Shown one piece after another: positions 47,699 to 63,385 of a DNA stretch of 64,000 bases. The stretch lies in the NCBI RefSeq assembly GCF_050920415.1, contig NZ_CP169309.1; one strand, given 5' to 3'. A program made the position numbers and the translations under genes. Below the pieces are notes generated by a model. That model had not been told where the DNA came from. It searched no databases and saw nothing but the letters and a program-made list of their open reading frames with translations. Position 1 is the first letter of the stretch, and each line of letters begins with the position of its first letter. Source of the DNA: Escherichia coli (GTDB taxonomy: Bacteria; Pseudomonadota; Gammaproteobacteria; Enterobacterales; Enterobacteriaceae).

Positions 47699-49309
47699 TC
47701 AATGTTTCACAATATACATAGTCCGGCTATACGCCACATCTTCCGGGTTATTAATGGGATAACCTTTCAGCCACGGCTTGATTAATCGTCCATTGGTATA
47801 TTGATAAATTGGTGCAATCGGTGCTTGCTCCATGAGGATTTTTTCTGCCGCATTGTAATCGGCATTACGCGCTTTAACGGTATTTTCCGTCGATGCCTGG
47901 GCCAAAACTTTGTCGTAGGCCGGGTTGTTAAAGCGTGAAATGTTGCCTGAATGCGTTGACGTTAATAATGTCAGGAAGGTGGAGGGTTCATTATAATCCC
48001 CCACCCACGAGGCGCGGATAACATCAAAATTACCTGTATTACGACTATCGATATAGGTTTTCCATTCCTGATTTTGCAGTTTGACATCTACACCAAGGTT
48101 CTTTTTCCACATCGATGCCACAGCAATCGCAATTTTTTGATGGTTTTCTGAAGTATTATACAAAAGCGTCAGCTTCAGCGGTTTTTGCGGACCATAACCG
48201 GCTGCGCTCAACAAAGTTTTTGCCTGCGCATTCAGTTCTTCCTGACTCATTTGTTCAAACGGCGAAGGCTCCGGCGTGAATCCGGCAGTAACATCTGGCG
48301 TAAAATGCCACGCTGGTTTTTCGCCCGTCCCCAACACTTTTTCGGTCATCAGGCGGCGATCTATCGTCATACTTAATGCCAGACGAACGCGCTGATCTGC
48401 CGTCGGCCCTTTTTGCGTGTTAAACGCATAATAATAGGTTCCGAGCTGCGGCGGTGTATAAACCTGCCCCGGAATATCCTTCAACAGCTTCTGATACATA
48501 TTTTTGGGGAAGGATTCGGTGATATCAATATCCCCCGCGAGATAACGCTTAGTGGCTGCGGATTCCTGATTAATTGGCAGGAAGGTCACTTTTTGCAACA
48601 CCGTTTTGGCGTTATCCCAATAATGGGTATTTGGCACCACGACCAGTTTTTCATTGACTACACGCTCTTTAAGAACATAAGCGCCATTGCCGACCAGATT
48701 TCCGGGTTTCGTCCACTCTTTCCCGCTTTCTACGTTAGCTTTTTGCACCGGGAAGAAGGCAAAATTGGCTGTTAAATTCACAAACCACGGCAACGGTTTA
48801 TCAAGCTGGATTTTCAAAGTACGGGCATCAACCGCGGTGACGCCTAGCTGATCAGGCGTAGCTTTACCATCAATAATCGCCTGTGCGTTGTTGATTCCCG
48901 CCAGCGCGGCAAACCAGGCAAACGGCGACAACGTTTTTGGGTCAACCAGACGTTGCCAGCTGTAGACAAAATCCTGTGCCGTTACCGGTGTGCCATCCGC
49001 CCATTTTGCGTTATCGCGCAGGGTGAAAGTCCAGATACGGTTGTCATTACTTTTCCACTGAGTCGCAACGCCGGGGACAATCTCCCCTTTCTCGTTCTGA
49101 TTCACCAGTCCTTCAAAAAGATCGCGAATGACCTGAATCTCTGGCAGACCCACGGCTTTAGCGGGATCCAGCGACGCAGGCTCATCTTTAATATGGCGCA
49201 CCAGCTCCTGCTTCTCTGCCAGTACTGTGCCGCTCGGAACTTCTGCAGCATACGAAAGAGACATTATGCAAAGTGGCAAAAACGATATATAAATCATGAT
49301 TTTATTCAT
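47699..49309 (-). CDS. mppA: periplasmic murein tripeptide-binding protein MppA, with an AT-rich, apparently replaced 5' end
   Basis: OppA-family SBP sequence; start taken at MNKIMIYISFLPLCIMSLSYA/AEV signal peptide (ATG at 49309); the first ~20 codons and upstream DNA are AT-rich, unlike the rest of the gene. Confidence 0.85.
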   Translation of the reverse strand: MNKIMIYISFLPLCIMSLSYAAEVPSGTVLAEKQELVRHIKDEPASLDPAKAVGLPEIQVIRDLFEGLVNQNEKGEIVPGVATQWKSNDNRIWTFTLRDNAKWADGTPVTAQDFVYSWQRLVDPKTLSPFAWFAALAGINNAQAIIDGKATPDQLGVTAVDARTLKIQLDKPLPWFVNLTANFAFFPVQKANVESGKEWTKPGNLVGNGAYVLKERVVNEKLVVVPNTHYWDNAKTVLQKVTFLPINQESAATKRYLAGDIDITESFPKNMYQKLLKDIPGQVYTPPQLGTYYYAFNTQKGPTADQRVRLALSMTIDRRLMTEKVLGTGEKPAWHFTPDVTAGFTPEPSPFEQMSQEELNAQAKTLLSAAGYGPQKPLKLTLLYNTSENHQKIAIAVASMWKKNLGVDVKLQNQEWKTYIDSRNTGNFDVIRASWVGDYNEPSTFLTLLTSTHSGNISRFNNPAYDKVLAQASTENTVKARNADYNAAEKILMEQAPIAPIYQYTNGRLIKPWLKGYPINNPEDVAYSRTMYIVKH

Positions 49310-49352
49310 ATATTTTTTAACCTTAAAATAATATGGTACACACAATGGTACA

Positions 49353-49380
49353 CAAAAAGAAACGAGGCGTTAGCCTCGTT
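49353..49380 (-). terminator. intrinsic terminator downstream of the prophage tail-fibre gene
   Basis: AACGAGGC-gtta-GCCTCGTT hairpin followed on the minus strand by TCTTTTTGTG. Confidence 0.6.
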
Positions 49381-49409
49381 TCGCGGCGATGTTCTTCGCA
49401 CATCACCTC

Positions 49410-51782
49410 TTATTCTTCGCTTCCGGTCAACTGCTTAACAAGCGCAACCAGTTCGCTAACCTGATTTTCAAGATTGGTGATACGTTCATCCATGACAGTA
49501 ATGTTAGCACGTAAGCTGGCGTTTTCTTCTTCCAGTGCTGTAGCTTTCAACATTAAGGATTGTGTAACGTGCATTGTATCGAGCAATAAAGGCGTAGTAT
49601 CAAGCTCTTTCACCTCTATTTCTTTGTTGTTATTATCATAATGTGTTCTTGTTTTTACATATAACGGATCTATTAGTTCGGCTGATTGTGAAATAATGCC
49701 ACGCCGCACTCTTTCTTTTTCATCACCATTGAATACGAATGTTACGAAATCAAGGTTTTCTAAATTGCTCCACGCTTTATCTACGGTAGCGTGCTGCACA
49801 TTATGCTTAAATCTAATATCAGATATTGCATTTTTAGTAACCGTTGAGGTTTCTGTTACGGAATAATTATCCCATTTGGTAAAGTAAATGTTTGAATCAA
49901 ACGGGGCAATTTCAAGTCTTACTCCGTATTTGTTATCACTATCACCAACGCAGTTTAATGAAGTCCTAGCAAAACTAGTGGTATTGTGATGAATTAAACC
50001 GAGACTATACCAAGTCGCATACCCCGCTGAGGATGCTTGCCCTGCACTAAAATTGGAATTAAACGACCAGTTTTCACCTATATTAGTGTAAGGTACAACG
50101 AATGTTGCGCCGTGCGTTGGGATCTCACCCCAACTTAAAAGTTTTTGCGTTGTAGCCCTAAATGATGCTGATTCAAAAAGCCCGCTATCATTTACCGTAA
50201 TTCTCCCCTTGTTCCCTGATGTTTTATTTTCAACTTCAATAACTGCATAGTGGGATTGATCGATATACGCATCACCCCACATCGACACTTCGCATTCTGA
50301 GGCGTCACCGATCTTGTATACGGATTTTACAACACCTGTAGTTGATTTTGTTCCGGTTGATAGCCTTGTTTTGTCGGCGTTAATTACGCTCCAGGATGTA
50401 TTTGCAGCGGTAAAGCCACCAGATGCACGGATCACCCATACACCAACAAAGTTTCGTGTAAGAATTTCATCTGTTGATGCTCCATAAATCGGGCTACACC
50501 GTGACGCATCAAAAGTACATGTATTATAACGGCCTTCCAAAGCGGTTGTACCGCTAGGAATTGCATCACCTACACCGTCAGGAAATACACTGTTATCGGA
50601 GGAAAATGCACCATAAGATGTGCCAATGGCTTGCGCGTAACTCCCACCGGAATAAGTGGTAAAATAACCAGTAATATTTGGCGCGGCTGATTCAAATAGT
50701 TGTCCGTTTGCACTACTAACGCCACCATCACCTCGACCATAAAGCGCTCTGATCGATCCTTCTTGTATACCGTTTTTATCGGGAACGCGGAAAGTTGTTT
50801 CTCCGTCACCCGTGGAATATTTACCGCGTTGGAATTTATCAGCCAGCCATTCAGAATCATCTATAGCGCCCACCATTTGAGCGTAAGCCCACAATTCAGG
50901 CCAATCTGCACGGTTAAGTAATTGCCCGTCCGATGTAACCTCATAAGGCTGAATATAAGCGCGGCTATCGCGTAAGTGGAAATCCCCTACGCCGTAATTC
51001 ATAACACCGTTCATTGTTGGTCCGACTGTACCACTATTGATATAGTTCATTACCCAACGCATTGTTACAGCGTCGTAATCACTTACCGGATCGCCTGCTA
51101 ATGGCGTTGAACCTATTGGGCGAACGTTCAACCAGGCCGCCGCTCGGTCGGCAAGATCGGAAAGGTTATTTTGTATTCTTAGAAATGAATCCGGGTTTAT
51201 GTCGTTTTTGTACCCTTCCGCTATGTTTTTATATTCTTCGGCGTTAGCGGCGCTTTCTGCTGCGTTTACTGCCGCCCCTGTTGCGGTAACAGCCCCTTCT
51301 TCTGCTGTTTGTGCTGCTGCTTCTGCTGCTGCTTTAGATGATTCGGCGTCTGTTTTGTATTGCTGAGTTGTCGCTTTATCTGCGCTTACTTGCGCTGAGT
51401 CCGTGTGAACTTGGTTAACTAGTGCTATCAATCCATCAAGATCAAATTCCTGAAAAAATTCAACTGCGTTTGCAATTTCGGTTTCCTTGCCCTGATAGTA
51501 ACGCAGAGTTTCAGCAACATCTTGCGCTAAACCATCTACAGAAATCGAGTCTGAAAGCAGAATACTGAATTTTGTCCCGGCAGATATTGCAGGGTCGGCC
51601 GCAGGAGTTACTGATAATTCAGTTCCGCTCTTAATTTCGGTGATGGTAAATATCTGCACAGGATCGCTAACTGCAATCAGCGTGCACCCTTCCCGGATGA
51701 GCGAAAGCGGCGCGGTGAAGCTTGTCCCCAAGCCTGTAACAGTGTTACCACTAATAGCTATTGTTCCTGTTGTATAAATCAT
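49410..51782 (-). CDS. phage tail fibre protein with tail-collar domain and C-terminal peptidase-S74-like intramolecular chaperone
   Basis: 790 aa; Stf-like N-terminus; collar-domain motif (DWPELWAYAQ...GDGETTFRVPDKNG); C-terminal SDIRFKHNV motif followed by coiled coil, typical of autoproteolytic chaperone domains. Confidence 0.8.
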   Translation of the reverse strand: MIYTTGTIAISGNTVTGLGTSFTAPLSLIREGCTLIAVSDPVQIFTITEIKSGTELSVTPAADPAISAGTKFSILLSDSISVDGLAQDVAETLRYYQGKETEIANAVEFFQEFDLDGLIALVNQVHTDSAQVSADKATTQQYKTDAESSKAAAEAAAQTAEEGAVTATGAAVNAAESAANAEEYKNIAEGYKNDINPDSFLRIQNNLSDLADRAAAWLNVRPIGSTPLAGDPVSDYDAVTMRWVMNYINSGTVGPTMNGVMNYGVGDFHLRDSRAYIQPYEVTSDGQLLNRADWPELWAYAQMVGAIDDSEWLADKFQRGKYSTGDGETTFRVPDKNGIQEGSIRALYGRGDGGVSSANGQLFESAAPNITGYFTTYSGGSYAQAIGTSYGAFSSDNSVFPDGVGDAIPSGTTALEGRYNTCTFDASRCSPIYGASTDEILTRNFVGVWVIRASGGFTAANTSWSVINADKTRLSTGTKSTTGVVKSVYKIGDASECEVSMWGDAYIDQSHYAVIEVENKTSGNKGRITVNDSGLFESASFRATTQKLLSWGEIPTHGATFVVPYTNIGENWSFNSNFSAGQASSAGYATWYSLGLIHHNTTSFARTSLNCVGDSDNKYGVRLEIAPFDSNIYFTKWDNYSVTETSTVTKNAISDIRFKHNVQHATVDKAWSNLENLDFVTFVFNGDEKERVRRGIISQSAELIDPLYVKTRTHYDNNNKEIEVKELDTTPLLLDTMHVTQSLMLKATALEEENASLRANITVMDERITNLENQVSELVALVKQLTGSEE

Positions 51783-51941
51783 CTCAACAACTCCATAATG
51801 TTAACTTATGTGTCAATTCTACCATTTTGCGATCTGTGTTACATTTCTGTCTTATACAAAATGTATTTGTTGATTTACATCAATGTTGTGAAAATGCGGT
51901 TTGTGGATACTACAACCAACGAAACAACGGAGGGTAAGACA

Positions 51942-52181
51942 ATGAAAGGCTTAAAAAATATCGCTATCGCTGCAATGGTTGCTGGTCTGGTTGGTTGTGC
52001 TGATATGCCGAAACGTGAATGCACGGCAATTTATCAAACTGGCGGTAATGAGTATGCGGTTGCAGTCTTCGGTGTCGCGGATGTTGGTGGTCACAAAATG
52101 GCTAAGGCTGGGTATCCATTTAATTTTCAATGGGTGAGCGTTGACCACTTCAAGAAAACGGATTGCCCGGAATTGAATTAA
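51942..52181 (+). CDS. phage lipoprotein, possible Cor-like superinfection-exclusion protein
   Basis: 79 aa from ATG at 51942 with SD GGAGGG; lipobox LVGC; opposite-strand gene at the distal end of the tail module, where cor sits in N15/phi80-like phages; family assignment is inference. Confidence 0.5.
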   Translation: MKGLKNIAIAAMVAGLVGCADMPKRECTAIYQTGGNEYAVAVFGVADVGGHKMAKAGYPFNFQWVSVDHFKKTDCPELN

Positions 52182-52771
52182 TCATAGGCGTCGGTTTTAA
52201 TGGCGGTGATAGCGTTCCCGTGGTTAATATAGCCAGTTGGTGCATATACGCTACCCGCCTGGATGCCGTAAATTCTAGTTGTGCTTCCGTTGTAATAAGC
52301 CGCCGCATAAATGGATGCACTACCCTGTCCAACGAGCGCCCCTAACAATTGGGGGCAAATAGCATAAGAACCGGATAACGTTTGGTCTATATAAATTCCG
52401 CCGCTTGATCCTGCCGTCCCAACGGTTACAAGGTCTGTTAATATTCTTGATTCATTAGTTAGCACTAGTTCCCCGGAAGCGTTCCAAATAGCCATTCCCC
52501 ACTTCGGCAGCGATGGCGGGAAAATAGTGAAAATATACGCATACCCCGAACCAGCCCCGATTAGTAAAGTTGATGGGCTATTTCTATAAGCTAATACAGC
52601 GGCGGCGGTAGTGCTTTTTACAAATACCATCACGGGCTTCCCGGATGGCACGGCGACGGTTTGATTCGATGATGTTAATGTCACCCGTTCATATAAGCAA
52701 AGCGGCGTTGCTTCCGGTGTAACGAAAATATTCCCGTTACTTAATCTCAAATAAGCTCCGAAGGTTGCCAT
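52178..52771 (-). CDS. phage protein (197 aa) downstream of J, N-terminus MATFG
   Basis: ORF whose stop overlaps the next gene; shares the N-terminal MATFG with the adjacent 103 aa ORF; Gly/Ser/Thr-rich. Confidence 0.6.
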   Translation of the reverse strand: MATFGAYLRLSNGNIFVTPEATPLCLYERVTLTSSNQTVAVPSGKPVMVFVKSTTAAAVLAYRNSPSTLLIGAGSGYAYIFTIFPPSLPKWGMAIWNASGELVLTNESRILTDLVTVGTAGSSGGIYIDQTLSGSYAICPQLLGALVGQGSASIYAAAYYNGSTTRIYGIQAGSVYAPTGYINHGNAITAIKTDAYD

Positions 52772-53082
52772 TAAGCCACCTCCGCAAATATAACAATTTC
52801 ACACTGTGACGCGGGCCATATATTAGCGCCTACCGTATCCCCTGCCGAGGAAATGGAAACAGTACCACCCGAAATAGTGATCTTTCTGCGCGTCGTTGAC
52901 GTTGTGCCATAATCAAGCGTCATCCCATAAGATAATTTGCATCCGGTCGGCACTGTAAAGGTATATGTGCCGGATACCTGCCCGGATGATAAGGAAATAT
53001 AACCAACCACAACGGAAGGTTTAATTCCATAGTTATTAGCATTGCCGCTGGCGTCCCAGGTCGCTACGCCGAAAGTAGCCAT
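52771..53082 (-). CDS. phage protein (103 aa) downstream of J, N-terminus MATFG
   Basis: ORF immediately after J with SD (GGAGG); Gly/Ser/Thr-rich beta-type composition. Confidence 0.6.
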   Translation of the reverse strand: MATFGVATWDASGNANNYGIKPSVVVGYISLSSGQVSGTYTFTVPTGCKLSYGMTLDYGTTSTTRRKITISGGTVSISSAGDTVGANIWPASQCEIVIFAEVA

Positions 53083-53134
53083 AATTACACCTCCTTAATA
53101 AAAAACTGAGGCCGAACAAGTCGGCCCCTTAATT

Positions 53135-56100
53135 CTACCATGATCCGGTAATTCGCCCAATCTGGACGCGCAAAACCCCGTTACCGTCTTTTACCGAAAT
53201 AGTGGTATTAGTTAATTTCATCGCGCCCTCACCACTCACCGCGCCGTAGTTTTCGAATGTCCCGCCTTTATCCAGTTTCCATCCGGTACTGCCGGAAACA
53301 TAGTTATTTGACTGGATGTAAGAACCTATTTTCGCGTTGGTGATTGAGGCGTCTTTTATAAATGCTTCGCGAACATACATAGCGCCGTTTTCAACATAAA
53401 ATGGTGTCGTATATGTGCCGTTGGCGGCTGTCATTAATACGAAGCGGTCAACAAGAAAAATACATTGTGATTGCGTATTTGCGCCATCACCAGTTACCCC
53501 AAGCGATATTCCTGACGCGTATTTCATACCGTTGTTATCAGTAGCGATCTTGAGACTCCAAGTTGCCGACATATCACCATTAATATTGGTAATTGCTGTT
53601 TTGTTTTCCTCAATAAGCACTGATTGCCCATTAATTGATGCGGTTACTTCGCTAATTTGCTGCGCGGTTGCTTTTTCAAGCGTAACCATTGCTTGTTCAA
53701 GGTTTGTGACCTTCCCTTGAATATCATCACTTATTTTTGCTTCAAGCTCTGATAATGCTTTTGCTGTTGCCTCTTTTTCCGTTGCGACAACTTCATCTAT
53801 ACGCGTGATCTCTGCTTTTGATTGTTTCAACTGAGCGGAAAGTGTGCGTCTTGATGTTGTTTGAGCTACGGAATTATTAAGAAGCGCAATGGAAACGTTT
53901 TGCAAGCGGGCGCGAGTTTGTGTTAGTTCGCTATCCTGTTCCGAAAGCTCGACACCTATTTCGTCAATACGACTTTCATGAACCCCTAACCCCTCTTCGT
54001 TATTCTGGACGCGATTAATTAGATCTGATGTGGTATCCTTCAGATCGGTAACATCCCCTTTAAGTGTGCTCGTGTCACTAATCAACCCTTGAAATTGCTC
54101 GCTTTCCATGACTTCTTTCGTCACGAAATCTGTAATTTCGTCGAAGTCCTCCGTAGGCTTCCCGGATGCCTCAATAAAATCTGACACACCGAACGCGTTG
54201 CGGGTGCGAATGTACACATAATACATGTGGCCTGTGCTCATGCCGCCGAACGTCCATTGATAACCACGTCCGGTATACTGCGCTGACGTGGTTATGGTTG
54301 CCGGATCCGTAATCCTGTTTTCTCCGGCGTAATAAAATTCATATGCCGTATCAGTGGTGAGTGTTGTTTTGCTTATCGGGTAGACAGTAGCCTGAAATAC
54401 ACCAGGCACCCAATTTACACCGACAGGCGCGGATGGCGCTCCAATCACCAGATCGACGATGCTTTCTGCACCCTTCATGCCAGTGTCATTTCTGCCGCGA
54501 ACACCTAACGTGTATGAACCAGCATCAATGCCATAAAAATCATAACTGTATTTCGTGGTTTCATAGCTTTTAACCACCGCACCATCTGCATTGTATATGC
54601 GGATCTCGAATGTCATGCGATGAGTGGTAGTCTGTGTCTCCCACGTTGCGCGGCATTGAACTGTTTCCGATCCAATGTTTACTACCTTCAGATTTTCGAT
54701 GTTCGGCACACGGAAGTGATTAAGCGTGTCGCTGTTGATTTCGAAGATTGCGCCTTCATCGACTACGGCTTGTTTGTTAGGGTCGTGCTGCGCGGCTTCG
54801 ATAGTGTATACGCTGTTATTTTGTGTTTCTGCTACGCTGGTGATCCTACACAAAACTGGTTTTGCTGCGTTAGTTGATACAGCAAAAACAGTGCCATTTC
54901 GAATCCATGTTGGGGCCGCAGCAAGGGTGATATTGTTTCCGTTAACTCCGGTGATCTGGTGTTTTTTAAATTTGCCATCGCTATCAAGAAGGCTTATTGT
55001 GTCGCCAGCGGTCACATATTCAGAATCAACCTTATCTACAGTGATCACACGTCCATTGTTAGAGACAATACGACCGCCTAAGCGAGCGCCAGCACGGTTA
55101 TTGTCGAGTATCTCGATGATATCACCTGGCGTAAAGTGAATCGCGTCACGGGCCATTTTAAACGTGAATTTTGAAGGCTCGCGCTTCGCTGTTTCTATCA
55201 GCCATTTACCCGCCCGGTGCGCTTGCCCGCGTGATGTACACCCGAAAGCCTCCAGCGTGGTTTCGTTGTAGCCGTCACGGGCGATTAGTTCATCATCTGC
55301 GACATACTCTTTTGATTGTTCCCAGCCGTTTTCCGGATCAGTCCATGACACAATTACCGCGTTGTAGCATTCTGATCGCGCGATACTTGAACGGGTAAAT
55401 GCACCATCCACGACGTTTGCGTTAGTGATGGTTGCGATTGGGTCTTGTGGTGCATCAATCATTATAGTAAGGCGCTGACCATCCCATAACGCTATACCAC
55501 GGAACATCCCGGCGATGTTGTCCAGTAGGTCGCGGGCGCTCATTTGCTCTGTGATGTACGCGTTTAGCGTGACGCGCGGCTCTAAGCCACCATAGCCATC
55601 ATCAACCAACTGATCGCAGTATTGAGAGAGCGTATACAAAGCACCATCATCAACATCGATATAACCAGCCTGTCGAGCAAGGCCAAAACGCTCGTTTTTA
55701 ACCAAGTAGCGGAATATCCACGCCGGGTTATTTGTGTATGCCTTTTTAAGTCCGCCAAGCCATAAACCGGAATAATTTCGTTTTTCCGGGTCGTAGTTAT
55801 CCGGTACATCGACAATCAGCCCACGCAGATGATAAGTGCGTGTAGGTGTATCGGAGTACTGGTCATGGTCAATTACCGCGCCAGCTACAGCAGTGTGAGG
55901 ATAAGACAAGTTATCGTCGATGATTTCGCTATAACTGTTCCAGCGGGTATCGTTCTGTAATAGGTCGCTTACACTATCAGCCGTCACGCGGCGCACGCGA
56001 ATATCAAATGGCTTTTCATCCGGCGCATCAATGATATGAGACTCCAGATATTCACCGCTAATCTTACCCGGACCGATTTGTACGGCCTTAACCGCCGACC

Positions 56101-58511: not shown

Positions 58512-58616
58512 ACCGTGAATGCCAAAATGGATTGATAGCGTGATTTACAATATGTATATTTTACTCAAACGAACGGTAGTAAACAAAATGGCACAGTTTG
58601 GAACAGGATAGGACAC

Positions 58617-58775
58617 TATGAGATCCGCAAAATACGCAGAAAAAGTTTTCGTTGAAGTGAAAGGCGACATGAAAAAATTTATGGATGTTCTTATCAAAGA
58701 GATGGGAAAACCGTTCCATATAGCCGAACGTCAGTATTACGCTTGCAAGGCTAATAGCTACAACAGATACGCATG
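58617..58775 (+). CDS. moron ORF C1 (52 aa), unknown function
   Basis: First ORF of a compact plus-strand cassette inserted between tail genes L and M. Confidence 0.4.
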
Positions 58776-58798
58776 ACAATAAACACAAAGGTAACACT

Positions 58799-58891
58799 AT
58801 GCAAAAATATCGTCTTGATGTGTGGATGGCTGGAAATAAAGATTGGGAAGGTTTCGGATTATTTGACAGCCGCGAACTGGCTAACGACTAA
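58799..58891 (+). CDS. moron ORF C2 (30 aa), unknown function
   Basis: Short ORF with AAGG SD in the same cassette. Confidence 0.3.
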   Translation: MQKYRLDVWMAGNKDWEGFGLFDSRELAND

Positions 58892-58972
58892 GGGGAAAAA
58901 CTTGTTAACTTCTTTGGACGGGCCAGGGAGTTTTAAGTAACCCCGGTACAGATAGAAAATAAGGTGGAAGAG

Positions 58973-59152
58973 ATGAAATACGATATTGATAACGACGCTT
59001 GCTTTAAACAAAACTTTGCGGATTCTATGGATCAGTCTTGCCCTGAAATACACGCACACGGTTTCCCGGCAGATAATCCAGACATGAAACGCGAATACGA
59101 AAAAGCGGCGAAAGATTTCTGCATCGACAATCTGGGCGCATTCGATAGATAA
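58973..59152 (+). CDS. moron ORF C3 (59 aa, acidic, Cys/His-containing), unknown function
   Basis: ATG preceded by AAGGTGG; track ORF 58964..59152. Confidence 0.5.
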   Translation: MKYDIDNDACFKQNFADSMDQSCPEIHAHGFPADNPDMKREYEKAAKDFCIDNLGAFDR

Positions 59153-59161
59153 GGCGGCAAT

Positions 59162-59410
59162 ATGGCGAGGCGAAAACATAGCGATTATATGTACACGCTG
59201 AAGCAGGCCGCCCGCCTTATCGGTTATCATGAACACGAATTTATTGATTTGCTGATTGAGCGCGGGATTTTATACCAGGTCTGTTTAACGCTGTACCCGA
59301 AAGCGAAATACTTGCAGGAAAAGTTATTCATCATCATGACGGATGAAAACCAGGTTAATCACTCATTCGTCACTGCCAAAGGCGTTAATTATCTGCGCGA
59401 TAACTTATAG
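59162..59410 (+). CDS. moron ORF C4 (82 aa), putative HTH-containing protein
   Basis: ATG preceded by AAGGCGG; segment TLKQAARLIGYHEHEFIDLLIERGIL resembles a helix-turn-helix. Confidence 0.5.
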   Translation: MARRKHSDYMYTLKQAARLIGYHEHEFIDLLIERGILYQVCLTLYPKAKYLQEKLFIIMTDENQVNHSFVTAKGVNYLRDNL

Positions 59411-59420
59411 GTGACAGATT

Positions 59421-59537
59421 ATGAAAATAGAAGTTTTGGCGCTAATAGTAATGGGATTGATAGTATTTGGTGTTCATGCTGTAGATCTGGACTGGAAAAC
59501 GATAGCAGAAAATATAGCGTTAATGGAAATGGAATAA
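59421..59537 (+). CDS. moron ORF C5 (38 aa), small hydrophobic membrane peptide
   Basis: ATG preceded by AGGTGA; single predicted TM helix (LALIVMGLIVFGV); followed directly by a terminator. Confidence 0.4.
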   Translation: MKIEVLALIVMGLIVFGVHAVDLDWKTIAENIALMEME

Positions 59538-59541
59538 TAAT

Positions 59542-59560
59542 AACCCCGCTTCGCGCGGGG
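59542..59560. terminator. intrinsic terminator closing moron cassette C (possibly bidirectional)
   Basis: CCCCGC-ttcg-GCGGGG hairpin followed by TCGTGTTTAT. Confidence 0.65.
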
Positions 59561-59566
59561 TCGTGT

Positions 59567-59752
59567 TTATACGCCATCAAGTAAAAATAAAACTTCCTTG
59601 CCTTCTCTTGATCTGCATCCTACATAACCGTCACCCATGTCATGAAGATACCAGGTCTCACCATTATCAGCTTTTACAGTAAGATCGTTGATTTCATAGT
59701 CGTCAAACAATGTAAAAGCGCCCGTGCGGTCCACTACACAAATAGCATACAT
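59567..59752 (-). CDS. small phage protein (61 aa) between M and L, unknown function
   Basis: ORF starting MYAICVVDRTG with SD GGAGG; start lies 14 nt 3' of the M stop on the same strand. Confidence 0.45.
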   Translation of the reverse strand: MYAICVVDRTGAFTLFDDYEINDLTVKADNGETWYLHDMGDGYVGCRSREGKEVLFLLDGV

Positions 59753-59765
59753 ATTGACACCTCCA

Positions 59766-60462: not shown

Positions 60463-60717
60463 ATGAAACTGGTAGCGATTGACAAAAACCTGAAAGTACA
60501 GAAAAACGCACAGGACCGGATTATCAAGAAAGGTAAGGAACTGCTTAAAGCATTTTTGAAGAAAGAGGCGCGCCCCAAAAAGTTACGCGATGGTTATGGC
60601 TTTAAATTCGATATCAATCATGACTGGCGGCTGTTCAGCGAAGACCTCAAAGTCTGGTTAATAATCGATCACCTGGAATATAACAGGCACTGCGGGGTTA
60701 AAGGGGCGCATAAGTGA
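60463..60717 (+). CDS. moron ORF B2 (84 aa), candidate RelE/ParE-superfamily (HigB/Gp49-like) toxin
   Basis: ATG with SD GGGGGTGAG; basic N-terminal helices and C-terminal RDGYGFKFDINHDWRLFSEDLKVWLIIDHLEY pattern resembling the RelE/HigB beta-sheet core; assignment by pattern recognition only. Confidence 0.5.
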   Translation: MKLVAIDKNLKVQKNAQDRIIKKGKELLKAFLKKEARPKKLRDGYGFKFDINHDWRLFSEDLKVWLIIDHLEYNRHCGVKGAHK

Positions 60718-60725
60718 GGCGGGAT

Positions 60726-60818
60726 ATGGAGGACGATAAATTCACCTGGCGGGAGATCTGGAATATTTGGTTGGTGATGTTTTCTCGCAGCTATATAGCC
60801 AGAAACGGAAGATTGTAA
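60726..60818 (+). CDS. moron ORF B3 (30 aa), unknown function
   Basis: Short ORF with SD (GAGGCGG) abutting B2. Confidence 0.3.
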   Translation: MEDDKFTWREIWNIWLVMFSRSYIARNGRL

Positions 60819-60836
60819 TTTGCGGAGGAAAATAAA

Positions 60837-61013
60837 ATGAAAAACCCGGCAAATAAAAGCAATGTAAAACGTATAGCCTGGATCGTGAAATGGATGGATA
60901 GTAAAGGAGACACATATACTGAACCATTTTTCAAACATACTGATGCAGTATTTGCAAGAAGCGTAAGAGGCGGGAAAATTGAAAGAGGATATACAAGTTT
61001 TGAGAATAACTAA
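60837..61013 (+). CDS. moron ORF B4 (58 aa), unknown function
   Basis: ATG with GGAGG SD; followed by a strong terminator. Confidence 0.45.
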   Translation: MKNPANKSNVKRIAWIVKWMDSKGDTYTEPFFKHTDAVFARSVRGGKIERGYTSFENN

Positions 61014-61020
61014 AATATAA

Positions 61021-61050
61021 CCCCGGCATTGTACCGGGGTTTTGTTTATT
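61021..61050. terminator. intrinsic terminator closing moron cassette B, overlapping the 3' end of the tape-measure gene
   Basis: CCCCGG-cattgta-CCGGGG followed by TTTTGTTTATTT. Confidence 0.8.
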
Positions 61051-63385
61051 TGCGGCGCGGTTGCAATATTCCCCCTGGTCTTTGTGATTCCCTTGTTATC
61101 ATTTTCATTGCCACACGTTCCATTGTTTGTTCAAGTCTGCGGCTATCTTCGTCGCTAAATCCGTTTGTGGTCTGAATGTTAATATTGACAGGCATACTAA
61201 TACCGCCGCCACCAATATCACGACCAGGTATAACCCTGCCATTCTCGCCAGGAATCATGTATTGATTGCCGTTAGACGTCTGGAATAGCTCCGGCCTGTT
61301 GTGTTCCCCTACACGGTACATGTTGCCACCAATGACGCTACCACCATTAAAGCGCCCGCCGCCGAAAATGGATGTTGCCAGTGACATGATCGCAGTAAGC
61401 GCCGCCGAGCCAGCCGCCGCCCAGCTACCGCCAGTTGATGCCGCTGTCGCTGCCGCCGCCGGGGCCGCCGCCGCAGCAATGCTTCCCTGAGCGGCAACCG
61501 CGCTTGCCGTTGTGCTGGCCTGCGTGGCCTTGCTTTGTGTCTCCATCATGATTTGATCTGCTATCCAGTTGGCAGCTATGTCCGAAAGTCTGTTACCGAT
61601 ATTCCCAAGTATATTGCTTCCTAAGTTAGCAAAAACATCACTTAATGATTGAGTGCCGTTTAGCAGGCCAACAAGGGCGTTACTCATACCACCTTTAAGG
61701 CCATTAACGCAATCACCGATCAGGCCGTTAGTATCGCTTTGCGCCTGCCATTGCTCCCATTTTAGATCGCGAATCTGTTGCTCATAGGCCAACAATTCCT
61801 GTTTCTGTTGCGCTTCGGTAGCGCCCAGGTCTATAAGCATTTGCTTACGGACGGCCCATTCATTTTGCGCCTGCTGGATGGGGTCAACTTCGCCTTTTAG
61901 CTGGTCCATCGGGCTAACTATTTGCGACCATTTATCACGCAATTCATCTACCGGAATTTGTGCTAACTCTTCTTTTAGCTCCTTGCCGATTCCCTTTTGA
62001 GCGGCGCGGTATTCAAGGAGTGTAATTTTCCCCTGGGCGAATGCAGCATCAATGGCCTTGCCGTTCTCTAACGCTTTGCGCATGGCGGCTGCGTCTTTGT
62101 TGTACTGGTCAGAAACGCTTATGCCTTTGTCACCAAGCCGATCAGCTTCAGTTTTCTTCTCTTTTTTCTGTTTTTTCGGCTTGTCTACTGGCTTGTCGAA
62201 TCCGGTAATAGTTCCGTCATTGGCGGCATTCTGTTCACTTTTCCTTGCTTCTTCTGTAGCCTGGATTGCAGCGGTCAGATCATCCTGTAATTGCATGACC
62301 TTACCAACGGTCTTACCATATTTCTTCTCATAGTTGCTGTCGTATTCGTCGGTTTGTTCTCCTACCACCTCTTTCATCCATTTGTAGCCGTCCATTAGCG
62401 CTTTGATTGGTGTCACCATTGCGATGATCTTCTCTGCCACCTCACCAGCCTTGATTCCGACATCCTCAAATATATCAATGAATTCGCTGCCAGCCGTCTT
62501 CAGGGTGATAAAGCAGGTTTTAGCGAAATCAGCACCATCACCTAAAGCCTTAACACCTTTCGTGACAAGATCGATACCAGCAACAACCGTATCGGATACA
62601 CCAAAAAGATCGTCCAACTGTTCGACAAGCCCCATAACTTCGACTTTAAGCTCATTCAGGGCCATACCGGATGTGCGCGGCAACTGCGCGAACTTCTCGT
62701 TTGTTTCCTGCGTAGCCGCCTGGATTGCGTTAACCATCCTTTCTGCCGTGATCTTACCGTCCAGCATTTCGGCGCGGAATTGGCCCATAGATAACCCCAT
62801 CTGGCGGGCCATTGTCTGTACGATGGTCGGGGTGTTCTCTAACAGGCTATTGAATTCTTCAGCACGAAGCACGCCGCCGTCGATAGACTGACGGAATTGA
62901 CGCATTGAGTTTGACATCTGCTCCGCAGATGCGCCGCCCAACGCCCCCATTTTCTGAATCGTACCTACCAGGTTAAGCAATTGCCCTTCAGTGGCGGACG
63001 TGTTCTTCAGGGAGATAGCCAGGCCTTGCCACAGATCCCCGGTATCCTTCATGCTTTGGCCTGTTTCTTTTGATATTGCTTTCAGGCCGTCGAAAACCCG
63101 CCCGGCGGACTCCGCATCGCCCGTAAGCATTTTGATTTTTACGCGAAGCATTTTTGCTTGCTCCGCCATATCCATAAATTGGCGCACAGCCTCCGCAGCA
63201 ATTAGCAGATGGATAACCCTGGTTAGTGCTTTGATTGATGTCTTCAGTGTGTTTACCTGGCGATCTGCCTGTTTAGCACCGCGCTCTATACGGTCAAAGG
63301 CCTGGTCTGCCTGTCGTTGTGCTACAAGAAGTTGTCCTGTTTTTGCGTCAACTTCGTAATAAATTGTGCCTACACTGGTAGCCAT
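61046..63385 (-). CDS. phage tail tape-measure protein (lambda H-like)
   Basis: 779 aa, alpha-helical and Ala/Gly-rich, Gly-rich C-terminal segment; located upstream of M. Confidence 0.88.
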   Translation of the reverse strand: MATSVGTIYYEVDAKTGQLLVAQRQADQAFDRIERGAKQADRQVNTLKTSIKALTRVIHLLIAAEAVRQFMDMAEQAKMLRVKIKMLTGDAESAGRVFDGLKAISKETGQSMKDTGDLWQGLAISLKNTSATEGQLLNLVGTIQKMGALGGASAEQMSNSMRQFRQSIDGGVLRAEEFNSLLENTPTIVQTMARQMGLSMGQFRAEMLDGKITAERMVNAIQAATQETNEKFAQLPRTSGMALNELKVEVMGLVEQLDDLFGVSDTVVAGIDLVTKGVKALGDGADFAKTCFITLKTAGSEFIDIFEDVGIKAGEVAEKIIAMVTPIKALMDGYKWMKEVVGEQTDEYDSNYEKKYGKTVGKVMQLQDDLTAAIQATEEARKSEQNAANDGTITGFDKPVDKPKKQKKEKKTEADRLGDKGISVSDQYNKDAAAMRKALENGKAIDAAFAQGKITLLEYRAAQKGIGKELKEELAQIPVDELRDKWSQIVSPMDQLKGEVDPIQQAQNEWAVRKQMLIDLGATEAQQKQELLAYEQQIRDLKWEQWQAQSDTNGLIGDCVNGLKGGMSNALVGLLNGTQSLSDVFANLGSNILGNIGNRLSDIAANWIADQIMMETQSKATQASTTASAVAAQGSIAAAAAPAAAATAASTGGSWAAAGSAALTAIMSLATSIFGGGRFNGGSVIGGNMYRVGEHNRPELFQTSNGNQYMIPGENGRVIPGRDIGGGGISMPVNINIQTTNGFSDEDSRRLEQTMERVAMKMITRESQRPGGILQPRRK

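Follow-up and report, generated by a model that had tools for sequence, protein, structure and literature searches.

The locus analysed here raises a simple question: what is the role of the two small genes that directly follow the gene for a J-type tail tip protein in a prophage of Escherichia coli, and how do they relate to the neighbouring gene, on the other strand, that codes for a lipoprotein? This part of the window, namely the whole stretch of 64 000 nucleotides that was analysed (contig NZ_CP169309.1), is the host-recognition end of a lambdoid or T1-type siphovirus prophage, with an FhuA-type cassette comprising the J tip, two open reading frames (ORFs) that we call A and B, and cor, followed by a side fibre gene. 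This three-gene cassette is already known as a mark of phages using the iron transporter FhuA, and the present locus is one more example of it, not a new system. The role of the two post-J proteins is disputed: the BASEL and receptor-prediction studies see in them a receptor-binding module, while the KanT1 paper, published in 2026, takes them by assumption for part of an exclusion system. We favour the receptor-binding view, on account of the lack of export signals, the paralogy between A and B, the fold of B and the co-segregation of the module with the J tip. The cassette predicts FhuA as the receptor of the prophage and a lysogen resistant to FhuA-dependent phages of the T1, phi80 and T5 types, two predictions of practical concern for the typing of phages, for phage therapy and for the control of contamination.

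The coordinates of all ORFs were confirmed (Table 1), and the J, 103-aa, 197-aa and 79-aa frames lie where a preliminary description of this DNA had placed them, in the order J homolog, A, B, lipoprotein gene on the plus strand and gene of the 790-aa side tail fibre. The lipoprotein gene had been described as divergent, which is correct with respect to the fibre gene (starting at 51782) only, as it is convergent with A and B: the 3′ ends of cor and B overlap by 4 nt (52178..52181), an arrangement otherwise found only in the close prophage relatives L003–L008. The TAA stop of A and the ATG of B share one base (TAATG), and both genes are endowed with strong GGAGG ribosome-binding sites. The side fibre, which scores 32.8 bits against Pfam Peptidase_S74 (cut-off 22), is coded by the final gene of the prophage arm. 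In phage T1, a rho-independent terminator is annotated between J and orf32, at the place matching that of the upstream hairpin listed in Table 1. Megablast of the region against a phage collection returned no match, and among the complete E. coli genomes (n=5426) DNA matches were confined to 4, at 81–84% over the cassette.

Table 1. Features of the cassette and of its surroundings (positions in the window).
Feature	Coordinates	Strand	Evidence
Central tail fibre of the J type (tip attachment protein), 1139 aa	53135..56554	-	Pfam FNIII-A_GpJ, Phage-tail_3, Ig_J, Ig_J_second, Phage_Tail_Tip; phrog_31
Putative terminator-like hairpin and T run between J and ORF A	53108..53128	-	Consensus scan
ORF A, 103 aa, start MATFGVATWD	52771..53082	-	phrog_557, E 1e-28
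ORF B, 197 aa, start MATFGAYLRL	52178..52771	-	phrog_425, E 5.5e-50
cor, 79-aa predicted outer-membrane lipoprotein, Cor family	51942..52181	+	phrog_1119, E 3.6e-23; NF047972
Intergenic region of 159 nt separating the divergent cor and fibre genes	51783..51941	.	Alignment with related prophages
Side (lateral) tail fibre of 790 aa with an S74 intramolecular chaperone domain at its C-terminus	49410..51782	-	phrog_6921, E 1e-188; Pfam Peptidase_S74
Terminator-like hairpin at the end of the fibre gene, on the prophage side of the nearby junction with the host	49359..49382	-	Consensus scan; junction mapped

The 79-aa protein (MKGLKNIAIAAMVAGLVGC; lipobox L-V-G-C) is translated from a gene with a GGAGG Shine-Dalgarno sequence 7–8 nt upstream. 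It had been put forward as a possible Cor, and its sequence makes it a member of that family. It reaches 53.9 bits against the NCBIfam equivalog NF047972, above the curated cut-off of 31, over positions 8–76 of the 78 of the profile; it matches phrog_1119, 'Cor superinfection exclusion protein'; and the RefSeq label cor is carried by a 94%-identical gene of E. coli UMNK88. Identity amounts to 51% with T1 Cor, to 32–35% with Cor of N15, phi80 and HK75, and to 50–63% with Cor of Drexlerviridae- and Dhillonvirus-type phages. When the protein is aligned with those of T1, N15, phi80 and HK75 and with two metagenomic Cor proteins, the invariant residues, every one of them kept here, are L16, G18 and C19 of the lipobox, C27, C75, A56–F60 (AGYPF), V65 and F70. 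The sequence hallmarks of the family are present: a lipoprotein signal peptide ending in the lipobox Cys, a mature part of about 60 aa, two further Cys and the AGYPF..V..F signature. So is the location, as the gene adjoins genes of the J–gp22–gp23 type, in the slot that cor occupies in N15 and phi80. An alignment of seven related loci over 51783..51941 displays the invariant blocks TTGATTTAYRTCAATGTTG and GGATACTACAAC together with GGAGG, and this conservation in related prophages is the reason why the region presumably carries the cor promoter. A scan of the plus strand for the sigma-70 consensus gave no 9/12 match and no acceptable cor promoter; an extended −10 sequence chosen by hand was discarded, since the relatives do not conserve it. 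By homology, the lysogen would exclude FhuA phages, with Cor presumably expressed and active in it.

The two post-J proteins belong to families known from other phages. ORF A is the homolog of T1 orf32, N15 gp22, phi80 gp22 and HK75 gp21 (phrog_557, over residues 3–101), with tblastn matches in 343 phage records; as expected of this family, it is about 100 aa long, directly follows J and has a stop codon overlapping the next start. ORF B is the homolog of T1 orf31, N15 gp23, phi80 gp23 and HK75 gp22 (phrog_425, over residues 1–197), in a family which comprises 140 clusters at 50% identity and where an N-terminal motif, MA-x-[FY]-G..NGN.F.TP, and a central one, WGMAIWDASG..TNES, are invariant or nearly so. 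Most of the 83 other loci that we inspected contain A, B and Cor side by side. Of the 80 that have A, at least 65 show the 1-nt overlap between the stop of A and the start of B, and Cor follows downstream, on either strand, in 72 of the 83. Searches of Pfam, NCBIfam and PDB sequences with A and B yielded no match, and all matches of A to PDB profiles had E > 0.03. Both proteins are rich in Gly, Ser and Thr, as had been noticed at the outset (G+S+T+A of 48% in A and 43% in B). Neither has a signal peptide, a lipobox or a transmembrane segment, and the same is true of 55 and 75 members of the families; the highest Kyte-Doolittle hydropathy over 19 residues is 1.01 in A and 1.15 in B (family maxima 1.49 and 1.48), and the first eight residues of both contain no K or R, hence no basic N-region. 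Database labels reading 'membrane protein' would make of A and B Lom-like or outer-membrane proteins, an assignment that we rejected as the export signals are absent. AlphaFold2 (AF2) models A as a small beta-sandwich whose N-terminal arm is flexible (pLDDT 88.2), for which a fold search gave weak lectin and tail-fibre-like matches, and B as a two-domain, all-beta protein (pLDDT 91.7).

That both proteins begin with MATFG had suggested a related pair, and the relationship extends well past these five residues. While BLASTP aligns A and B over a 14-residue N-terminal motif only, hhalign of A against residues 1–74 of B, run with diverse alignments, reaches a probability of 95% (E 2.8e-8, 82 columns) in an alignment beginning at residue 1; a first run with low-diversity alignments had given 18% only. 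An N-terminal M-A-(x)-aromatic-G motif is kept in both families across more than 80 loci, and the shared start is not a matter of chance. As the AF2 strand patterns of A and of the N-terminal domain of B also agree, the two proteins are paralogs over one domain, to which B adds a C-terminal one. The duplication is not recent, since the DNA of the two starts differs at synonymous sites (ATGGCTACTTTCGGC versus ATGGCAACCTTCGGA). Foldseek of the A model against BFVD retrieved nothing at E ≤ 1e-3 and no recognisable B-family member among the listed matches. The preliminary description had not recognised the pair as a probable receptor-binding module.

The modelled fold of B matches that of the solved LptD-binding receptor-binding protein (RBP) of phage Oekolampad, a likeness at fold level only (13% identity), with 133 residues of B aligned to 9RPT. 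The Oekolampad protein binds LptDE directly, as seen by cryo-EM (PMC12685063). It is this fold, together with the presence of homologs in phages needing FhuA, that designates B as the probable RBP. The literature places the cassette in the FhuA-dependent phages T1, HK022, N15, ES18 and phi80, as well as in each of the 10 Drexlerviridae/Dhillonvirus phages of BASEL that use FhuA, and the arrangement J–A–B–cor is reported only from FhuA-dependent phages (PMC13164509); the receptor is set by the locus downstream of gpJ (PMC8594841; bioRxiv 10.64898/2026.04.02.716166). In the J protein, the last ~55 residues (about 53138..53302) make up a tip that is specific to the class, co-segregating with the A/B module. 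Compared block by block, the C-terminal block has an identity of 0.68–0.77 among A/B-type loci and of 0.18–0.28 against Rtp44-type loci (n=5 only), while the block preceding the tip retains 0.53 between the types; J proteins of the Dhillonvirus-like group are near-identical as far as the switch point. This comparison replaced a tblastn marker made of the last 149 aa of J, which was far too broad (1759 records).

Strict linkage to cor in FhuA phages could also mean that A and B are accessory parts of Cor exclusion, sitting in a membrane or the outer membrane and jointly with Cor targeting FhuA, and not virion proteins, as the KanT1 paper explicitly assumes. We deem this unlikely: besides lacking, like their relatives, any signal for export or membrane insertion, A and B are translationally coupled in the late tail operon, directly after J, while cor is on the other strand in T1, in Dhillonvirus-type loci and in the present prophage; distant A/B-like pairs follow J without any Cor; and the fold of B is that of a solved RBP. 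As to these distant loci, the likeness to A of a 94-aa gene upstream of the B-like P0277 is not significant. Equally improbable in our eyes, a cassette of this type might be tuned to a receptor other than FhuA, such as the TonB-dependent transporter BtuB. Cor-like proteins do occur with BtuB-using phages, a Tempevirinae group with Cor and a B-like gene reportedly using this receptor (KanT1 paper), and B is only 42–53% identical to its homologs from FhuA-verified phages, falling to 33–39% over its last 57 residues, so that a shifted receptor is conceivable. Every phage reported to have the complete set of three genes, A among them, uses FhuA, however; the groups whose Cor is 50–63% identical to the present one, the Drexlerviridae and Dhillonvirus types, are reported as FhuA users; and residues 87–140 of B are 70–74% identical to T1, N15, phi80 and HK75. 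Least credible of all is a function of A and B as Tfa-like assembly chaperones or connectors of the adjacent side tail fibre, without receptor binding: they do lie between J and the fibre gene here and in N15, phi80 and HK75, and A has its weak lectin and tail-fibre-like matches, but the lateral fibre gene of T1 is ~3 kb off, on the other strand and past recombination genes, with A, B and cor still adjoining J, the present fibre has its own S74 intramolecular chaperone domain, and the module tracks the outer-membrane protein receptor, not the fibre type.

A cap formed by A and B on the J tip and binding FhuA, with Cor blocking FhuA from the periplasm, is the reading that we consider probable; the presence of A and B in the virion, FhuA as the receptor and the role of A are the parts of it that we infer. 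A and B would be made in the cytoplasm as virion proteins, their translation coupled by the TAATG overlap on the late tail transcript, past a hairpin that follows J and would act as an attenuator. Their docking site would be the class-specific stretch of ~55 residues that ends the J fibre, a trimer. B, as the RBP, would probably plug into the FhuA barrel from its extracellular side and trigger DNA ejection, and A, a stand-alone version of the tail-proximal domain of B, would probably be an adaptor or partner at the joint between J and B. Transcribed from the opposite strand, Cor would be exported, lipidated and anchored in the outer membrane, there to bind FhuA from the periplasmic side in the manner of T5 Llp. 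FhuA held in this way would be unusable by T1, phi80, T5 and the present phage itself, which would protect the lysogen or infected cell and keep progeny off cell debris. As the distal region of J was left unresolved by cryo-EM of the T1 tail tip, neither A nor B has so far been observed in a virion, and a search of the searchable literature gave no published proteomics of virions and no binding data on the two proteins.

The LptD-type module, known as Rtp44/Rtp45 and as the RBP and SE lipoprotein of Oekolampad (PDB 9RPT, 9RPS), allows one to look further back. With hhalign, residues 13–117 of the B family align with residues 114–235 of the Rtp44 family (67.5% probability, E 5e-5, 103 columns), while hmmsearch of PDB sequences with the B profile found nothing at E up to 10; we therefore describe B as working like the Rtp44/Oekolampad family and not as a member of it. 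The results also suggest that FhuA-type and LptD-type RBPs are distantly related, not unrelated. Rtp44 begins with the same MA-x-G-I motif, and its alignment with B does not start before residue 114 of the Rtp44 chain. One might go as far as to see in the FhuA-type module a split RBP, where A and B (103 + 197 aa) would stand for the 311-aa Rtp44 chain, A being a free-standing tail-proximal domain of B. This remains speculative and, on balance, rather doubtful, as the A profile detects no match in residues 1–113 of Rtp44. Were it true, multiple copies of a single small domain, contributed by both proteins, would assemble into a pseudo-symmetric collar that matches the J tip, with its threefold symmetry, to one receptor-binding head. 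The receptor-specific RBP families known from small siphoviruses, which have been described as unrelated, would in that case be one superfamily, diversified as domains were swapped and genes split or fused.

We can place the present locus among known systems. The Rtp44/Oekolampad type differs in having a single chain of 309–311 aa in place of the A and B pair, LptDE as receptor, no family-level sequence match to B and a different J tip sequence; Rtp45 is not a homolog of Cor, and in Rtp both genes lie on the strand opposite to J. Phage lambda likewise combines a J-type tip fibre, the C-terminal domain of which binds LamB, with morons after J, among them lom; there, however, J itself binds the receptor and no A/B pair exists, and Lom is an exported 8-stranded beta-barrel, unlike A and B, which have no export signal. 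With the pb5/Llp pair of T5 the resemblance lies in Cor, predicted in the literature to have the Llp fold. Its counterparts are the cassettes of T1 (orf32, orf31 and cor, that is orf30), N15 (22, 23 and 24), phi80 (22, 23 and cor), HK022 (p24, p25 and cor) and HK75 (gp21, gp22 and gp23), made of the same families, phrog_557, phrog_425 and phrog_1119, which again follow J immediately and have the 1-nt overlap between A and B. Compared with T1, N15, phi80 and HK75, the present proteins have diverged to 41–49% (A), 46–49% (B) and 32–51% (Cor) pairwise identity, and B is shorter, with 197 aa against 212–229. T1 shares with our prophage the hairpin between J and A and the location of cor on the opposite strand, while N15, phi80 and HK75 share with it the side fibre coming next after the cassette: in N15 and phi80 the order is J, gene 22, gene 23, cor and fibre, and it is gene 25, in both, that fills the slot of the side fibre described here.

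The window, whose edge falls within the prophage, has on its minus strand the distal genes of a siphovirus tail operon (tape measure, M, L, K, I and a J homolog). Three small genes follow: ORF A and ORF B, which both start with MATFG, and cor, which encodes a lipoprotein. The coordinates, lengths, MATFG starts, Gly/Ser/Thr richness and LVGC lipobox proposed in the preliminary description were all correct. The lipoprotein gene had also been called divergent: this holds relative to the fibre gene only, while cor converges on A and B, with a 4-nt overlap of the 3' ends. The TAA stop of A shares one base with the ATG of B, both genes have a GGAGG ribosome-binding site, and a terminator-like hairpin separates J from A, at the place where T1 has an annotated terminator.

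Features of the tail end of the prophage, in window coordinates
Feature	Coordinates	Strand	Remarks
Tape measure	61046..63385	-	
Insert between M and tape measure	60463..61013		plus-strand ORFs
58-aa ORF	60837..61013	+	no clear family; after ParE-like gene
84-aa ParE-like toxin-domain protein	60463..60717	+	PF24732, 42.7 bits (cut-off 24.4)
Insert between L and M	58545..59765		~1.25 kb, small plus-strand ORFs
82-aa ORF, KilAC/ANT antirepressor domain	59162..59410	+	PF03374, 31.9 bits (cut-off 25.3)
phrog_38567 member	58964..59152	+	in L-M insert
J homolog, 1139 aa	53135..56554	-	all J-type Pfam domains
ORF A, 103 aa	52771..53082	-	MATFGV...; after J
ORF B, 197 aa	52178..52771	-	MATFGA...; after A
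cor, 79 aa	51942..52181	+	lipoprotein gene, next to B
cor-fibre intergenic region	51783..51941		
Side tail fibre, 790 aa	49410..51782	-	C-terminal S74 chaperone domain
Terminator-like hairpin	49382..49359	-	between fibre gene and rebuilt mppA start
Junction region	49262..49410		prophage end
mppA	47699..49345	-	

Two interruptions of the minus-strand tail operon may be mentioned in passing. The insert between L and M looks like an opposite-strand moron island, and the two ORFs between M and the tape-measure gene may form a toxin-antitoxin-like pair. At its other end, the prophage stops within the 5' part of mppA. Of 5426 complete E. coli genomes, 5418 show homology that ceases at about 49262, some 27 codons into the coding sequence. 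The phage arm replaces the missing start and N-terminal signal peptide with its own, MNKIMIYISFLPLCIM, which is fused to the host SLSYAAEV... This junction is shared by only 2 complete genomes.

A and B fall into the phage families phrog_557 (E 1e-28) and phrog_425 (E 5.5e-50), and searches of Pfam, NCBIfam and PDB sequences matched neither. With tblastn, A was matched to 343 phage records and B to 349, from T1-like phages, Dhillonvirus, HK/mEp lambdoids and Klebsiella Drexlerviridae. The order J-A-B-cor is common to the annotated records of all four reference phages: T1 (A, orf32; B, orf31; cor, orf30, on the opposite strand), HK75 (gp21, gp22, cor, then fibre), N15 (J, gene 21; then genes 22, 23 and 24, and fibre gene 25) and phi80 (J, gene 21; then genes 22 and 23, cor and fibre gene 25). 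Among 83 loci other than that of the window, A precedes B in 80, its stop overlaps the start of B by exactly 1 nt in at least 65, and Cor follows the pair in 72 (same strand, 59; opposite strand, 13). Homology and gene order thus identify the MATFG pair as part of a known conserved cassette, of which the window holds a rather divergent example: only 4 of the 5426 complete E. coli genomes match at the DNA level, with 81-84% identity across the cassette, and megablast of the region matched no phage record. This FhuA-linked 'Cor cassette' was reported in the FhuA-dependent phages T1, HK022, N15, ES18 and phi80, and in 10 of 10 FhuA-using Drexlerviridae and Dhillonvirus phages of the BASEL collection (PMC13164509).

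The lipoprotein, which had been proposed as a possible Cor from its position, matches phrog_1119, 'Cor superinfection exclusion protein' (E 3.6e-23), and the NCBIfam equivalog NF047972 (53.9 bits, curated cut-off 31), and E. coli UMNK88 has a 94%-identical gene labelled cor in RefSeq. Its identity is 61% with each of two metagenomic phages, 51% with T1, 35% with HK75, 34% with phi80 and 32% with N15; every position invariant in the alignment of six Cor proteins is kept, namely the L-x-G-C lipobox, two further cysteines and the AGYPF..V..F motif. Relatives occur in 212 phage records (tblastn), the closest in Drexlerviridae- or Dhillonvirus-type phages (60-64% over most of the protein), with the HK/mEp lambdoid proteins at about 36%. 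Profile matches and alignment therefore turn a positional assignment into a family-level one, and the protein can be named a member of the Cor family. A scan of the cor-fibre intergenic region found no consensus sigma-70 promoter for cor. The same region contains blocks invariant in seven related prophages, one of them an imperfect palindrome, TTGATTTACATCAATG, which could act in the regulation of either cor or the fibre gene.

The preliminary description had taken the two MATFG ORFs for a related pair, and this was borne out well beyond the shared start. Pairwise BLASTP detected a short motif only, residues 1-14 of A resembling both 1-14 and 88-101 of B, and hhalign with shallow alignments gave 79-82% probability for this motif; a longer alignment reached only 18%. 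Deeper alignments were then used, of 44 sequences for A and of 78 for B, some of the latter being representatives drawn from a full scan over 1.84 billion proteins. Residues 1-80 of A now matched residues 1-74 of B with a probability of 95% (E about 3e-8). The AF2 models agree with this profile alignment: each has a low-confidence N-terminal arm of about 20 residues, followed by strands at matching positions (23-31, 38-41, 48-55, 65-71 and 74-81 in A; 25-32, 37-40, 47-53, 61-65, 68-71 and 76-82 in B). The N-terminal motif recurs at the start of the second domain of B (3-32 against 90-119, 88% probability). A is thus a paralogue of the N-terminal domain of B, which has an additional C-terminal domain (87-197). 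As for MATFG itself, an M-A-(x)-aromatic-G start is conserved in both families and accounts for the identity; a recent duplication is ruled out, because the codons differ at synonymous sites.

Compared with T1, N15, phi80 and HK75, B is conserved in its N-terminal arm (44-63%) and in residues 87-140 (70-74%), and variable in residues 28-86 (31-32%) and 141-197 (33-39%); many distant members of the family match the first ~125 profile positions only and differ in their C-terminal parts. A profile search of PDB sequences with the B family found nothing. Against the family of Rtp44, a single-chain LptD-type receptor-binding protein, the B family gives a weak alignment (67.5% probability, E 5e-5, B 13-117 on Rtp44 114-235) across the domain-junction motif, ..IF..P..P.WGMAIWDASG..LTNE.R.L in B and ..IIFQQVAPTPGPGINIFNSNNQCTFSTLTRPL in Rtp44, which points the same way as the predicted fold similarity. 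Rtp44 (locus L086 of phage Rtp, 6753..7918; L087-L106) has 311 residues, nearly the length of A plus B, begins with MAQGIYID..., similar to the MA-x-aromatic-G-I start shared by A and B, and can be aligned with B from residue 114 onward only. These features hint at gene fission or fusion as the relation between the FhuA-type pair and the single-chain protein; the A profile did not detect residues 1-113 of Rtp44. Two distant B-family proteins in other records (222 aa, locus at L107 145..1112; 307 aa, locus at L108 3720..4924) have different C-terminal parts, and each is preceded by a gene of 94-99 aa whose stop overlaps its start; the L108 pair sits after a J homolog. Neither locus has a Cor-sized gene downstream, so that the short-plus-long architecture is wider than the FhuA/Cor type. 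In a database protein of 337 aa, P0197, a J-like FN3/coiled-coil segment runs straight into the last two-thirds of a B-like protein; this could have arisen naturally, by fusion of J and B or by deletion, or be an artefact of assembly or gene calling.

For J, the C-terminal 220 residues were compared between 77 loci of the A/B type (non-redundant sequences) and 5 of the Rtp44 type. Over the final ~55, identity within the A/B class is 0.68-0.77, higher than in the region upstream; between classes, with only 5 Rtp44-type loci, it is 0.18-0.28, and 0.53 in the preceding block. Among Dhillonvirus-like J proteins, the two classes hardly differ up to ...GW(R/K)(L/I).K.G, then switch, and the J of the window ends ...GEGAMKLTNTTISVKDGNGVLRVQIGRITGSW, as it does in T1, HK75 and N15-like loci. 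These observations are consistent with a surface at the J end on which A and B dock, and with the exchange of J tip, receptor-binding protein and exclusion gene as one unit; such an exchange was also reported from k-mer models (bioRxiv 10.64898/2026.04.02.716166).

We consider it likely that A and B form a tip module in which B binds FhuA, and that Cor blocks FhuA. As products of the late tail transcript, A and B would be synthesised in the cytoplasm, coupled and probably in sub-J amounts, and would assemble on the class-specific J tip. B would engage FhuA, as suggested by homology with phages of known receptor, and A, as a copy of the tail-proximal domain of B, would be its adaptor or partner. 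Cor would be exported and lipidated and, having Ala at +2, would be sorted to the outer membrane. There it would inactivate FhuA from the periplasmic side, in the way demonstrated for Llp of T5 and modelled for Cor of KanT1 (PMC13164509), excluding FhuA-dependent phages and protecting progeny. That the cassette is tuned to another TonB-dependent receptor seems improbable to us. We give as little credit to A and B being exclusion accessories, as assumed in the KanT1 paper, which found no structural match for the two proteins upstream of Cor (PMC13164509): they have no export signals, they are coupled in a late operon and B has a predicted receptor-binding fold. A role as side-fibre chaperones is less likely still, since T1 keeps the cassette next to J although its lateral fibre gene is about 3 kb away on the other strand, and since the fibre of the window carries a chaperone domain itself.

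Neither the cassette nor its link to FhuA is new to the literature. We did not find, in the available literature, A as a paralogue of the N-terminal domain of B, the fold-level kinship of FhuA-type B with the solved LptD-type receptor-binding protein, or an explicit statement that A and B lack export signals. The function of A and B is disputed, since the KanT1 reading, of 2026, differs from that of a receptor-binding module with its cognate exclusion protein after gpJ, which is taken by the BASEL paper (PMC8594841) and a 2026 receptor-prediction preprint (bioRxiv 10.64898/2026.04.02.716166). Computational and modest as they are, the paralogy, the fold kinship and the missing export signals favour, in this disagreement, the receptor-binding view.
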